Assembly: GCA_021781285.1 (NCBI GenBank)
Contig: JAJXXD010000207.1
Location: 1 to 28,123, forward strand
DNA: 28,123 nt
Source: a bacterium
Lineage (GTDB): Bacteria; SZUA-79; Acidulodesulfobacterales; Acidulodesulfobacteraceae
Reading direction: 5' to 3'
The position numbers were made by a program. Below are positions 21,001-27,000 of the stretch, in pieces (within the stretch, counting starts at the first letter, position 1; the number at the start of each line of letters is the position of its first letter).

Positions 21001-24000
21001 ACAGCAATTTATTATGCCGGTTATTTTGTTTTGCAAAGCAATTTTAACAATATATTCAGCTAATTTTTCAATGGGAAGGTAATCCCTTAATTGTTCGCCG
21101 CCGGACATATTAAATACTTTTTCTTTGTTATTAATGGCTGCATCAAGCTGTGATAAAAGGCTTTTAGGCGATTGACCATTACCATAAACATAAAATAGTC
21201 TCGACCATATTAAGTTGAATTTTTTTGTTTTTTGAAGTTCTTGCAAAAATCTTCTCAGGCTGTCTTTGGCAATTGCATAAGATGTTACGGGGTCGGTTTT
21301 AATTTCTTCAGATAAACACCCATTTTTCAATCCGTATTCAAAACAAGTTCCGGTAATGGTTAAATCTTTTAATCCGCCGGATATCATATCTCTTAAAAAA
21401 AAATAGTTTTTATAAAGGTTTTGTTCAATATGCATCATATTTTTATAGTCTGGAAGTCCATCCCACGCTAAGTGAATCATGGCATCAGGTTTCCGAAGTA
21501 TTTTAAAAACATCCGAGCCTGTTTGCGATATGTCAAATTCTATTACGTTAATTTTTTTATCATTAAACCAGCTAAATTTTTTTGCTTTTCTCAAACTCCT
21601 AGTCGTCGCAATTATACTTATATCTTTATATCTAACAAGACAATCCATCACATAAGAGCCTATAAATCCGGTAGAGCCGACGACAAGAACCTTCATAGTT
21701 CAACGCCTTTGAAATTTGTTGTTATAAATTTATAGTTTTTATCTTTATCTGATATTTTCGTGACTTTTAACGGCCAATTTATATTAAGAATTGGATCATT
21801 GTGATTAAGACCTGATTCTTTTTCTTTGTTGTAGAAATTTGTATGAATATATAAAAGTTCTACATTATCCTCTAAGGTCTGGAAACCATGCGCAAATCCT
21901 TCGGGTATCATAAATATTTTTCTTGAATCTCCATCGAGAATTTCTCCTTGCCATTGTAGAAAGGTGCAAGAATTAGCTCTTATATCCACGGCAATGTCGT
22001 AAATAGAACCTTTTAAGCAGATTATTAATTTGACTTCTTGAAATGGCGGATATTGAAAATGAAGGCCTCTAACAGTTCCTTTCTTTTTTGAGAAAGAGTG
22101 GTTAATGTTAATTATAGGCTTATCTAAGCCAAGCTCTTTAAATTCTTTTACGCAAAATAATCTTTCGAAGTGCCCCCTATTATCTTCTTTAGATATAGGG
22201 GTAATAAGATATAATCCTTGTAATTTTGTTTCCTTTACAGTAAAATTTACCATAATATTTTTTATATTATATTATTAAGCGATGCATTTCAATAATTAAA
22301 ATAAATTGAAAATTTTAGAATATATTTAAAAGAAAGGATTTTAATTAATTTGTTTATGTTATAACTTTAATATAAATATAGCTTAATGATGAATAACGGA
22401 ATAGGGAATTTTTATAATAAAAAATTCGCTAACCAAATTATAAAAGCAGTTATTAATAATCAAAGAAGGCACAGATGCAACTTTTAAAATTGACTATATT
22501 TATCCAATTTATTTAAAATAAATGTTATTTCTTTTTCTTTAATTCCAGGCCAAACGCCAATCCAGAAAGTAGAATCCATAACTATATCCGAGTTTGGTAA
22601 CATTTTATAATGTTTAGCAGATAAAGCGGTAGATTTTAATATGCCGGAATTTCTTATTCTTAGTTTTATTTCGCTGTTTAAAAAAGCAGGCTGTCTTAGT
22701 ATGTTTCCCGCAAAAAGATGCCTTGTTCCGATATTATTGGATTCAAGATATTTAACGAGGTCGGTTTTTTTAAATTGCGGGTTGTTTTTTACTGTTATCG
22801 GTAATCCGAACCACGAAGGTTCGGCGGTTGGTATGTGCTCCGGTAAAATAAGATAGTCTTCTAAGCCTTTTAATTTCATTAGTCCTTTTAGCAGTTTATT
22901 AAAGTTTTCTTTTCTTTTTGCTATAAATTGAGGCAGTTTATCTAACTGCGATAAGCCCACGGAAGCCTGCCAGTCGGTAATTTTCATATTATATCCGAGG
23001 TGCGAATAGACGTATTTGTGGTCGTAGCCTTTAGGTAAATTGCCAAACTGTCTGCTGAACCTGTTTTTACAGGTATCATCTTCCCCGGGCTTGCACCAGC
23101 AGTCCCTCCCCCAGTCCCTTAAGGAAAGGGCGATGTCGTAAAGCTTTGTATTATCGGTAATGATGGCTCCGCCTTCCCCCATGGTTATATGATGGGCCGG
23201 ATAAAAGCTTAATGTTGCAATGTCGCCGAAAGTGCCTGTATATCTGCCATTTACTTTCGAACCTAAGGCATCGCAGTTGTCTTCTATCAGCCAGAGATTA
23301 TGTTTTTTTGCTATTTCTGAAACCTTTTCGACGTCGAAGGGGTTTCCGAGAGTATGGGCTATAAAGATAGCTTTGGTTTTTGGCGTTATCGCTTCTTCTA
23401 TTTGGGACGCGTCGACATTGTAGGTTCCTATTTCGACGTCTATAAAGACCGGAATAAGTCCGTTTTGGATAATGGGCGTTATAGTCGTCGGAAAACCGGC
23501 TGCTACGGTTATAACCTCATCTCCTTTTTTAAGCCTTTCGTCTTTTAATTCGGGGGATGTCAGGGCAGTTAAGGCGACGAGATTTGCGGAAGAACCGGAG
23601 TTTACGGTTAAAACATGCCTTGCGTTAAGAAATTTGGAAAGTTTTTTTTCGAATTCATCGTTAAACCTGCCTGCCGTAAGCCACATATCGAGAGAAGAAT
23701 CTATCATATTATCTAAGTCTTTTTCGTCTATGATTTTTCTGGAGGCAGGTATATAGTTTGGCTTGCAAGGCTTGCCGGTAAGGTTTTGTAGTTGGTCAGG
23801 GGCTTTCTTTGATTTAAAATAAAGCCTTGCGGATGTCTTTGCAAATTCTCTTAATATAATATCTAATTTATTATTTCTAAGAGTTGCTATTTTGCCTTCA
23901 ATTAATTGTTCGGCTATACTGCATACCCTATCTATTATTGCGATAGAATTCACCGGCAATACGCCGTCCGTTATATCAAACGCCTTTTCGATTAAAATTC

Positions 24001-27000
24001 CGTTTCTAGATTCGTTTGAAGTGAGCGGAAAATAAAGATAATCTAGATATTTGCTTTTATCTATTATTAAAATAGGTCTTTTTTTGAAGCTCGAAAAGTC
24101 TGAATAAGGTATCATTGCGATGCAAATGCTTCCGATTTCGATTGAATTATTTTCGATAGAAACATTCCTCATAACGCTTGCTTTATCGTTGTCTTAACTT
24201 TTTCGGCAGGTAATGCGGATATGGAAGATGCGATATGGAAACCATTCCATTCCTCGTTTAATAAAGGGTTCCAGTCGAATATATCGATTAATTCTTTTTC
24301 CGTATAAGCTATTTTATGGTTTTTATTTATATTTTCTTTCGAGATTTTAGTTGTCTTAATATTTGTTTTTTTAATCCGATTTTTCATAGCTTACTCCTTT
24401 TTAATTTGCTTTATGAATGTTATTTATATTATATACTATTCGTTATTTGCCCTACTCCTCGTCCCATACCTTCCATGCGGCATTGCCGGTTTCCCACATC
24501 TGGTTTAGCTGACCTTTATCCCTCTGGGTATCCATGCATTTCCACAAGCCTTTATGTTTATATGCGAGGAGATTGCCTTCTTTAGCCAGTTTTTCCAAAG
24601 GTTCCCGCTCGAAGACGGCGGCGTCGTTTTTAATGTAGTCTATTATTTTCGGTTCGGCTACGAAAAATCCTCCGTTAATCCATGCGTTATCGCCCTTTGG
24701 CTTTTCGAGAAATTTTATTATTGCGTCAGTATTTTGGTTAATGTCTAAAGAACCGAAACGTCCTTCCGGCTGAACGGCGGTCATAGTCAATAACTTTTTA
24801 TGTTTTTTATGAAATTTCAGGAGCTTTTCGATGTTTACGTCGGATACGCCGTCGCCGTAGGTAAGAAAGAACGGTTTATCGCCTATGTAGTTTTTCACCC
24901 TTTTGATTCTTCCGCCGGTCTGGGTGTTTAATCCGGTATCTACGAGCGTAATCTTCCATGGTTCGGCTTTGCAGTTATGTACGTCGATAGAGTTATCGTT
25001 TAAGTTTATGGTAACGTCGGACTGGTATAAAAAATAGTTTGCGAAATATTCTCTTATCATATTTCCTTTGTATCCGAGGCATATAATGAACTCGTTAAAG
25101 CCGTAACGGGAATATATTTTCATTATGTGCCAAAGTATCGGCTTGCCGCCTATTTCGACCATAGGCTTAGGACGCAACTCTGTTTCTTCCGAGAGCCTTG
25201 TTCCGAGTCCGCCTGCTAGGATTACTACTTTCATATATAAAATTATCGGTTATATTCCGGCTTAAGTTAAACGGTTGAATAAATCAAATCGAAAAATATA
25301 AAGATTAAATATTATATATAATATGATATAATTTTTTTAGATTAAAAACAAATACAGGGCTATATTGTTGAAACAGATTAAAAAAATTAATAATTTTAAC
25401 GATTATTTCAGAAACAAAAAAGTCCTAATCACAGGTCATACCGGCTTTAAGGGTTCGTGGCTTTCTATATGGCTTATAGGGCTCGGCGCTGAAGTAGCGG
25501 GTTATGCCCTTGACCCTTACACGCCGCGAGATAATTTTGTTCTTGCAGGCTTGTCAGGAAAGATGACCGAAATAAGAGGGGATATAAGGGATTTTAATAA
25601 ATTAAATTCCGTTGTGGATAATTATAAGCCGGAAATAATATTTCATCTTGCGGCACAGCCGTTAGTAAGGGAATCTTATAAAATTCCTCTCGAAACTATA
25701 GAAACGAATGTTGCCGGCACGGCAAACGTCCTAGAGGCGTTCAGGATGTCGGGAAGCGCAAAAATACTTATAGTTATAACATCGGATAAGTGTTACGAAA
25801 ATAAAGAACGGTTATGCGGCTACAAAGAAACGGACCCTATGGGCGGATATGACCCTTACAGTGCAAGCAAAGGAGCGGCAGAGTTAATTTCCTCCGCTTA
25901 TATGAAATCGTTTTTTAATCCGGAGGATTTTAACAGACATGGAAAAGTAATAGCGACCGTAAGGGCGGGAAACGTCATAGGCGGGGGAGACTGGGCTAAA
26001 GACAGACTTGTGCCGGACTGCATAAAGGCGCTCGAAGACGGCAGGCAGATTGAAGCCAGAAATCCAGATGCGGTAAGACCATGGCAGCACGTTCTTGAAC
26101 CGTTGAGCGGATATTTGCTTCTGGCTTCCAAAATTTATGAAAATCCGGCAAGATATTCCGGCGCATGGAATTTCGGACCTCTTCCCGATTCTGCCGCAAC
26201 AGTCAAAGAATTAGTGGAGACGGTAATAAAATATTACGGCAGAGGGGAATGGAAAGATATTTCTGGCCGCTCAGGCTCAAGCCCAAGCTCAGGCGCCAAC
26301 GGTTACGGAAAAGACGCGCATCAGCCCCATGAGGCTAAACTATTAAATCTCGACATAGGCAAAGCGGTCTCCGTCCTCGGCTGGAAGCCTAAGCTAAACA
26401 TAGACGAAGCCGTTAAACTGACCGTGGATTATTATAAACGGTGCGGAGCGGAAGACGTTTATGAATTATGCGGCAAACAAATTAGAATGTACGCGGAAAA
26501 ATGCGAAATAAAAATCTGCCCTGTATGGAAGAAAAAGAAATAGAAGAGGCATTCAACTTTGCCGCCGCAAAACATAAAGAGGGAGATTTGGAACAGGCGG
26601 AGTATATTTACAGAAATATACTATCCGTTGACGACAGGCATATTTTATCGAACCATAATCTCGGAGCCCTGCTGGCTTCGGCCGGCAGACGCGCGGAAGC
26701 CCTTACGTTTTTAGGCAGAGCTTTAATGTTAAATCCTTTCAACAATGCTTACTGGAAAGATTATATCGACTGCGTATCCAAAATATCGGCTTCCGGCAAT
26801 TATTCTTCCGAATTAAAAAACGCGGTAAGCAATTCCATAGATACGGCATTATTATTTATTCACGATAAACTCTCCATTCCCGAGTTAGGCAATAAACTTG
26901 GAAATCCTTTGAGAGATTTAAATATTTTACTTCTGGGGACATGTCAGGCCGAGTTTTTTTTAAACGCCGGTTTGAATTCAGGCTGTAAAATAGACCATTT

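Follow-up and report, generated by a model that had tools for sequence, protein, structure and literature searches.

Contig JAJXXD010000207.1 of assembly GCA_021781285.1, a 28,123-nucleotide (nt) stretch of DNA from a bacterium of the family Acidulodesulfobacteraceae that is referred to here as the window, carries a gene in which a domain with the MazF/PemK toxin fold is joined, in one reading frame, to the sugar-biosynthesis enzyme RfbH. This gene overlaps a small open reading frame (ORF) of 72 amino acids (aa) that lies immediately upstream. Our analysis leans toward the view that the two genes specify a MazEF-type toxin-antitoxin (TA) pair, probably still active, whose toxin has become fused to RfbH. 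To our knowledge, TA toxins are almost invariably small proteins that stand alone; here the toxin shares a helix with a housekeeping-type biosynthetic enzyme, and the fusion has been kept across many lineages.

That the N-terminal domain adopts the MazF/PemK fold and carries equivalents of the catalytic Arg and Thr residues, as the initial annotation had claimed, is borne out by several comparisons. A profile of the domain searched against 1.8 billion proteins returned 246 matches (best E value 1.3e-11); among the matches listed, nearly all are free-standing proteins of 104-124 aa that align over their full length to aa 13-112, and eight of the nine best-scoring matches scanned exceed the Pfam cut-off for the toxin family, scoring 24-64 bits on PemK_toxin (PF02452). 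PHROG 1936, the 'MazF-like growth inhibitor', matches aa 5-110 (E value 9.5e-10), and 99 of 100 Atlas feature matches of the domain are PemK/MazF clusters. Against solved structures, a combined subfamily profile recovered Staphylococcus aureus MazF (E value 2e-10) and Bacillus subtilis EndoA (E value 2e-8); a profile built from the window clade only matched nothing in the Protein Data Bank (PDB). Identity to the solved MazF proteins is 14-20%. An AlphaFold2 (AF2) model of the domain reached a mean predicted local distance difference test score (pLDDT) of 92 and a predicted template modeling (pTM) score of 0.85, from an alignment of 137 sequences dominated by free-standing MazF proteins, and replaced an earlier model of aa 1-160 that had been built with 10 close homologs only and was unusable (pLDDT 52). 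When the new model was compared with the PDB by Foldseek, all of the top 50 hits were MazF or PemK structures, with template modeling (TM) scores of 0.57-0.77.

The two catalytic equivalents lie in the motifs KKRP (aa 30-33) and PLTS (aa 49-52), whose Arg32 and Thr51 correspond in the alignment to the R-P and I-T of the S. aureus and B. subtilis MazF proteins. Both motifs, including Arg32 and Thr51, are invariant across 10 fusion homologs. Mutation of the corresponding residues of Bacillus MazF, Arg25 and Thr48, abolishes its RNase activity (PMC7354611).

The remainder of the protein is RfbH, and its predicted E1 dehydrase core is complete. The NCBIfam model NF011936 matches aa 114-559 with 676.5 bits (cut-off 423) over profile positions 16-435 of 440, and the Yersinia E1 enzyme (PDB 3BCX) aligns to aa 139-559 (E value 3e-154). 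E1 enzymes are distinguished by a His residue that replaces the Schiff-base Lys and by a C-X57-C-X1-C-X7-C iron-sulfur motif. In the window protein the His-for-Lys motif (YPAHH) is intact, YPAHHITMGEGG beginning at aa 324, and the iron-sulfur motif is present as C300-X57-C358-X-C360-X7-C368.

Toxin and enzyme are joined through a merged helix. The initial annotation had suspected that the last MazF helix doubles as the first helix of RfbH, and this is supported both by the AF2 model, in which aa 100-123 form one continuous helix, and by the alignments: free-standing toxins end at the equivalent of approximately aa 112, a helix of the type ILR..K....Y[FY]K opens the unfused RfbH proteins at the equivalent of approximately aa 103-120, and RfbH homology begins at aa 114, which corresponds to position 16 of the NF011936 profile. 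The linker that follows the helix varies, with a 3-residue insertion or deletion (indel) among homologs and a ratio of nonsynonymous to synonymous substitution rates (dN/dS) of 0.26-1.2.

The two domains are encoded by a single uninterrupted frame of 562 aa, as had been reported, and a search for the same fusion in other genomes yielded 9 further protein clusters, of 555-565 aa and from other samples, in the same frame. The accompanying statement that no in-frame start separates the domains held only in part: ATG, GTG and TTG are all missing from aa 75-155, but TTG72 and GTG74 are in frame within the MazF domain, neither with a Shine-Dalgarno motif. It could be argued that the fusion is functionally meaningless, being either a mis-assembly or a recent scar in which loss of a stop codon joined a toxin gene to rfbH, since stop-codon-loss fusions are known to occur and the window comes from a fragmented metagenome-assembled genome (MAG; 1.28 Mb, 87% complete, 215 contigs). 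We find this hardly credible. The junction is real, because independent metagenome contigs bridge it without an indel: contigs of four other runs, from mine-drainage and wastewater metagenomes of three studies in which the stretch is near-identical, cover positions 23650-24170 and 22300-23884 with zero indels in the whole coding sequence. The same junction recurs in many assemblies, the fusion is common to distant RfbH lineages, and all of its parts are under purifying selection.

A second alternative, that a free MazF-like toxin ends at approximately aa 95-113 and RfbH is initiated separately at a non-canonical ATA codon (ATA95), is highly improbable. It draws on the sequence GAAGG, which lies 4 nt ahead of the in-frame ATA95, and on unfused RfbH proteins, which begin at the equivalent of approximately aa 103-106. 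However, none of the more than 20 fused homologs has a stop codon between the two parts, and the stretch from aa 75 to aa 155 is devoid of conventional start codons, as noted above. Residues 95-112 belong to the MazF fold and align with free-standing toxins. The GAAGG itself encodes the conserved E-G of this fold and is not conserved as a nucleotide sequence, being missing from relatives that have E-S in place of E-G, so that the ATA-started RfbH considered in the initial annotation is left unsupported.

The small ORF has the position and coupling expected of an antitoxin gene, in agreement with the earlier description of its ribosome-binding site and ATGA overlap. An AAAGGAG sequence is located 6 nt 5' of its ATG, and a 4-nt ATGA contains both its stop codon and the start codon of the fusion gene. 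Sequence inspection revealed no comparable motif ahead of the fusion gene, an arrangement that, together with the ATGA overlap, fits translational coupling. Homologs of the small protein form 31 protein clusters. In the clade contigs that were examined the ORF is 65-84 aa long, and it is conserved, with the 4-nt overlap on the fusion gene, in L001, L005, L007 and L010. Its N-terminus is Lys-rich (net charge +8) and variable, as is its tail, while a conserved core (aa 28-54) is acidic (net charge -5), contains two Trp and two Phe residues and carries the motif FDWNPL..EEWNGFHIAS. Free-standing MazF genes of the same phylum (L022 and L023) are preceded by a 64-aa antitoxin that scores 24.2 bits against DUF2281, near the threshold, and ends in an acidic D-W...EE..W tail. 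The small partner of a related fusion, P0166 (L032), gives a weak DUF2281 match (18.1 bits) within a 21-residue segment that is missing from the small ORF of the window, and its tail is likewise of the D-W...EE..W type. These similarities weakly suggest that the 72-aa protein may be what is left of a DUF2281-type antitoxin after trimming to the toxin-binding portion.

The strongest argument for a functional relation between the small protein and the MazF domain comes from the wider RfbH family. Far from being a local, unique chimera, the fusion is one member of a widespread RfbH family with such a domain, many members of which are catalytically degenerate and lack the antitoxin-like ORF. Of the 120 best-scoring RfbH relatives, many reach a length of 519-565 aa, and their N-terminal extension shows the strand pattern and junction helix seen in the window protein. 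Clusters P0166 and P0262 retain K-x-R-P and P-L-T-S. The Arg-bearing loop is missing in P0183/P0208/P0209/P0223, P0261/P0272, P0193/P0253, P0217, P0224, P0258 and P0024, and most of the domains that lack it still match the MazF subfamily profile. In scans of JGI metagenome contigs, neither the small-ORF profile nor the P0193 N-terminal domain gave a match.

Presence of the small ORF follows the same division. It accompanies the intact Arg/Thr motif in the window clade, in P0166 (82 aa, 47% identical to that of the window and with the same core motif) and in P0262 (L031; 50 aa, with an F-N-W-D-P motif). It is absent where the Arg loop has been lost, namely from P0272 (L034), P0209 (L035), in which the gene lies 42 nt past rfbG, P0258 (L036), in which it lies 51 nt past rfbG, and P0024 (L012), in which it overlaps rfbG at a low-coverage contig end. 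In P0162-P0165, which are nested within the window clade, both the domain and the small ORF are gone, and the likely rfbH start lies within 2 nt of the rfbF stop codon. Conversely, orphan small ORFs are found in four fusion-less genomes of the phylum (G016, G017, G010 and G032), beside other TA genes. By sequence comparison, the small ORF thus occurs without the fusion but an intact motif was never seen without the small ORF among the sampled lineages, which is the asymmetry predicted by a toxin-antitoxin relation. The proposal that the upstream ORF is an antitoxin-like partner gains from this pattern, in that the ORF accompanies the intact motif and disappears along with it.

Several of these loci have features of their own. 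At L038 3501-3534, the start called for P0164 gives an overlap of 32 nt with rfbF; an ATG located 2 nt past the rfbF stop codon is likelier, so that the annotated lengths of the 497-507-aa relatives probably exceed the true ones by about 11 residues. Two of the orphan small ORFs (L044 1465-1710 in G016 and L045 1495-1713 in G017; 81 and 72 aa, respectively) have altered C-termini and adjoin a VapB-like antitoxin gene; L044 also has MNT/HEPN-type genes in the vicinity, and L045 a remnant of rfbG. A decayed locus in MAG HSP2.bin5 (G021, L011 4831-5410) consists of a 3' fragment of rfbF fused to a small ORF (57 aa), followed by a remnant of the N-terminal domain with stops after aa 48 and an rfbG fragment, amid VapBC-like and HicAB-like pairs. 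In MAG YF2.bin53 (G005, second copy of the locus, L009 4807-5471), an intact small ORF precedes a 156-aa ORF in which the whole MazF domain and the junction helix give way to unrelated sequence, and after which an MNT-like gene follows; the two ORFs amount to a free-standing TA pair that stems from the fusion. The degenerate P0272 locus includes a metallo-beta-lactamase-fold gene with a Pfam match to Anti-Pycsar Apyc1 (L034 1067-1807), which adjoins rfbG.

Purifying selection is evident on all three parts. Values of dN/dS were 0.05-0.09 for the RfbH core (0.12 in one near-identical pair), 0.11-0.24 for the N-terminal domain (0.48 in that same pair) and 0.16-0.6 for the small ORF. Across the nine clusters of the clade, the N-terminal domain is 65-98% identical to that of the window. 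Within the window clade its conservation approaches that of the core (77-82% versus 79-83% identity), whereas in degenerate group A it diverges much faster (46-56% versus 80-88%).

These comparisons also bear on the main rival explanation, that the domain has been domesticated here too and serves as a non-killing module for dimerization, stability, docking or RNA or nucleotide binding, with the small protein as its regulatory partner. We rate this as a tentative but substantial possibility. Domestication, one of the options raised in the initial annotation, holds in other lineages, where degenerate N-terminal domains without a small ORF have been kept in frame in at least five RfbH groups, implying a toxin-independent benefit; the lack of a DNA-binding domain in the antitoxin-like protein and the mid-operon location of its gene also favor it, and CalpT provides a precedent for a non-toxin MazF-like domain in a multi-domain protein. 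Yet the domain of the window clade is far more constrained than the degenerate ones, its exact catalytic pair is invariant, and the small ORF tracks the intact motif and disappears with it, which would be unexpected if the partner regulated the enzyme rather than the active site.

Other observations also count against an active TA pair. Assignment of the domain to PemK/MazF rests on profile searches and the predicted fold rather than on the Pfam model: the hidden Markov model check against PemK_toxin, which had been suggested as a test, gave 19.5 bits for aa 1-115 and 15.2 bits for the full protein (profile positions 20-106 of 109), short of the gathering cut-off of 23.1. The composition of the AF2 alignment leans the model toward the MazF fold. 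For the small protein, no antitoxin family or DNA-binding domain was found in Pfam, NCBIfam, PADLOC or Atlas. The correlation between the small ORF and the intact motif comes from 8 sampled lineages only, among them the low-coverage contig end of L012. Moreover, retention of the domain without an antitoxin in several lineages indicates a toxin-independent value that could be its sole role here, and the conserved Arg and Thr might serve ligand or partner binding rather than catalysis.

Assuming that the TA pair is still active, we propose that one 562-aa polypeptide would comprise the MazF-fold domain, the continuous helix with a short flexible linker, and the complete E1 dehydrase. The 72-aa protein would most likely use its acidic core, rich in Trp and Phe, to bind the RNA groove of the MazF domain and would restrain the predicted ribonuclease activity. 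Because it has no recognizable DNA-binding domain, control would be exerted by coupled synthesis within the sugar operon rather than by autorepression. The pair might serve for addiction to the glycan locus, in abortive infection or in regulation, and its most plausible role is to penalize loss or shut-off of the glycan operon. In other lineages, the Arg loop and the antitoxin would have been lost and the domain kept as a non-toxic appendage. In its strongest form, this proposal would have an active RNase tied to a dimeric sugar enzyme, with the labile 72-aa protein as its only brake, guarding a surface-sugar locus, a scenario that we regard as doubtful. If true, silencing of the operon, through recombination that replaces the locus or phage-induced shut-off, would free the RNase, with cell arrest as the outcome, and repeated disarming of the device would be recorded in the degenerate fusions of other phyla.

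Trees built with FastTree suggest how this distribution arose. Fused forms are dispersed over one half of the RfbH tree, in which the window clade has a support of 0.997; the domain tree gathers 134 free-standing toxins in a clade (support 0.877) that excludes the fused N-terminal domains. This placement, together with the shared register of the junction, favors a single old fusion, in the ancestor of a wide RfbH subfamily and with later decay and loss, over repeated fusions, with the caveats that support is weak at deep nodes of the RfbH tree and that long-branch effects are possible. Synonymous divergence (dS) of the small ORF and the N-terminal domain is 2-3 times below that of the RfbH core in most pairs (e.g. 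0.48 and 0.61 versus 1.91) when window positions 22484-24387 are compared with L001, L005, L007, L010 and L032, and in P0004 the N-terminal domain is 88% identical and the core 76%. Mosaic recombination, synonymous-site constraint or saturation could account for these patterns; the uniformity of the dS bias over the pairs may reflect either of the latter two.

The fusion gene (Table 1) resides in an operon of the CDP-3,6-dideoxyhexose type, ordered rfbF, small ORF, MazF::RfbH, a 3,5-epimerase-like gene and a reductase-like gene in every clade contig examined. The small ORF begins 64 nt past rfbF. Two 1-nt deletions, at positions 24425 and 24428, occur in this spacer in wastewater-metagenome variants (runs X5 and X6), in which the coding parts are free of indels. 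The window contains no gene for E3, the RfbI/AscD-type ferredoxin-NAD(P) reductase, and the sole FAD_binding_6 match in the 87%-complete source genome belongs to a frame of 622 aa on a different contig (G000:C120:3881-4141). PADLOC reported no defense family, and at the Pfam level no further PemK match occurs in the source genome. The phylum, which to judge from one named cluster member and the mine-drainage origin is probably Candidatus Acidulodesulfobacteriota, is represented by 38 species genomes only, all of one family; within it, complete RfbH proteins above the NF011936 cut-off occur only in G000 and G005, both of them fused, and G018 has the N-terminal domain at a contig end. Elsewhere in the window, an ORF of at least 541 aa without a Pfam match reaches the window end on the forward strand (26501-28123), and its start shares 43 nt with the 3' end of rfbG (25365-26543, TTG start).

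Table 1. Coordinates of the fusion gene, its parts and the adjoining small ORF in the window
Feature	Position	Strand	Basis
Fusion gene MazF::RfbH, 562 aa	22484-24172	-	single ORF
RfbH/E1 (CDP-6-deoxy-L-threo-D-glycero-4-hexulose-3-dehydrase), aa 140-562 and stop codon	22484..23755	-	NF011936, PDB 3BCX
Variable linker, aa 121-139	23756..23812	-	homolog alignment
Predicted continuous helix, aa 100-123, MazF C-terminal and RfbH N-terminal helices merged in register	23804..23875	-	AF2
MazF/PemK-fold domain, aa 1-113	23834..24172	-	profile searches and AF2/Foldseek
Thr51 codon, equivalent of catalytic Thr48 of Bacillus MazF	24020..24022	-	alignment to solved structures
Arg32 codon, equivalent of catalytic Arg25 of Bacillus MazF	24077..24079	-	alignment to solved structures
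ATGA, stop of small ORF and start of fusion gene (4 nt)	24169..24172	-	sequence
Small ORF, 72 aa, antitoxin-like	24169-24387	-	ORF
AAAGGAG, Shine-Dalgarno-like, 6 nt 5' of small-ORF ATG	24394..24400	-	sequence

A full-text search of the literature found no published description of a MazF/PemK-RfbH fusion, and a comparative survey of TA systems makes no mention of a MazF-enzyme fusion. Public records name such proteins RfbH only, an annotation that conceals the second domain. Beyond the fusion itself, the present analysis adds the link of armed and disarmed forms to the small ORF, the co-loss of domain and ORF, the orphan small ORFs, the merged helix and the DUF2281 lead. The naturally armed forms, with catalytic pair and antitoxin, and the disarmed forms, with neither Arg loop nor antitoxin, provide a comparative system in which to ask by what route selfish toxins turn into domesticated domains and whether surface-glycan loci, which are hot spots of genetic exchange and of phage selection, can be guarded by TA modules.

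Among known systems, the closest in fold and layout are the MazE-MazF and PemI-PemK (Kis-Kid) pairs, exemplified by EndoA/YdcE (1NE8, 4MDX) and S. aureus MazF (4MZM), with which the window domain shares its fold (TM scores of 0.6-0.74), the placement of the Arg/Thr pair, and a small, coupled upstream partner with an acidic and aromatic segment. Here, however, a covalent fusion links the toxin to a metabolic enzyme of 450 aa, the pair lies within a biosynthetic operon, and the partner has no detectable AbrB, ribbon-helix-helix (RHH) or other DNA-binding domain. The DUF2281 (PF10047)-type antitoxins of L022 and L023 resemble the 72-aa protein in their acidic, Trp-containing C-terminal tail and in being encoded upstream of, and overlapping, a MazF-type gene, but the 72-aa protein lacks the DUF2281 helix and has a Lys-rich segment in its place, and the similarity, at 18-24 bits, is below the cut-off. 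MazF-like domains have likewise been embedded or recruited in CalpT (MazF-like plus DUF2080), of the type III CRISPR system CalpL-CalpT-CalpS, and in GajC of type II Gabija, although these serve in defense signaling rather than as sugar-enzyme fusions and have no cognate small antitoxin-like gene. On the enzyme side, the counterpart is RfbH/DdhC/AscC of Yersinia pseudotuberculosis (3BCX, 3BB8), to which aa 139-559 can be aligned end to end with the E1 motifs in common, the window gene being accompanied by rfbF, rfbG and the epimerase-like and reductase-like genes; the window protein differs in its approximately 110 extra N-terminal residues, which form the MazF domain, and in the sharing of its first helix with that domain.

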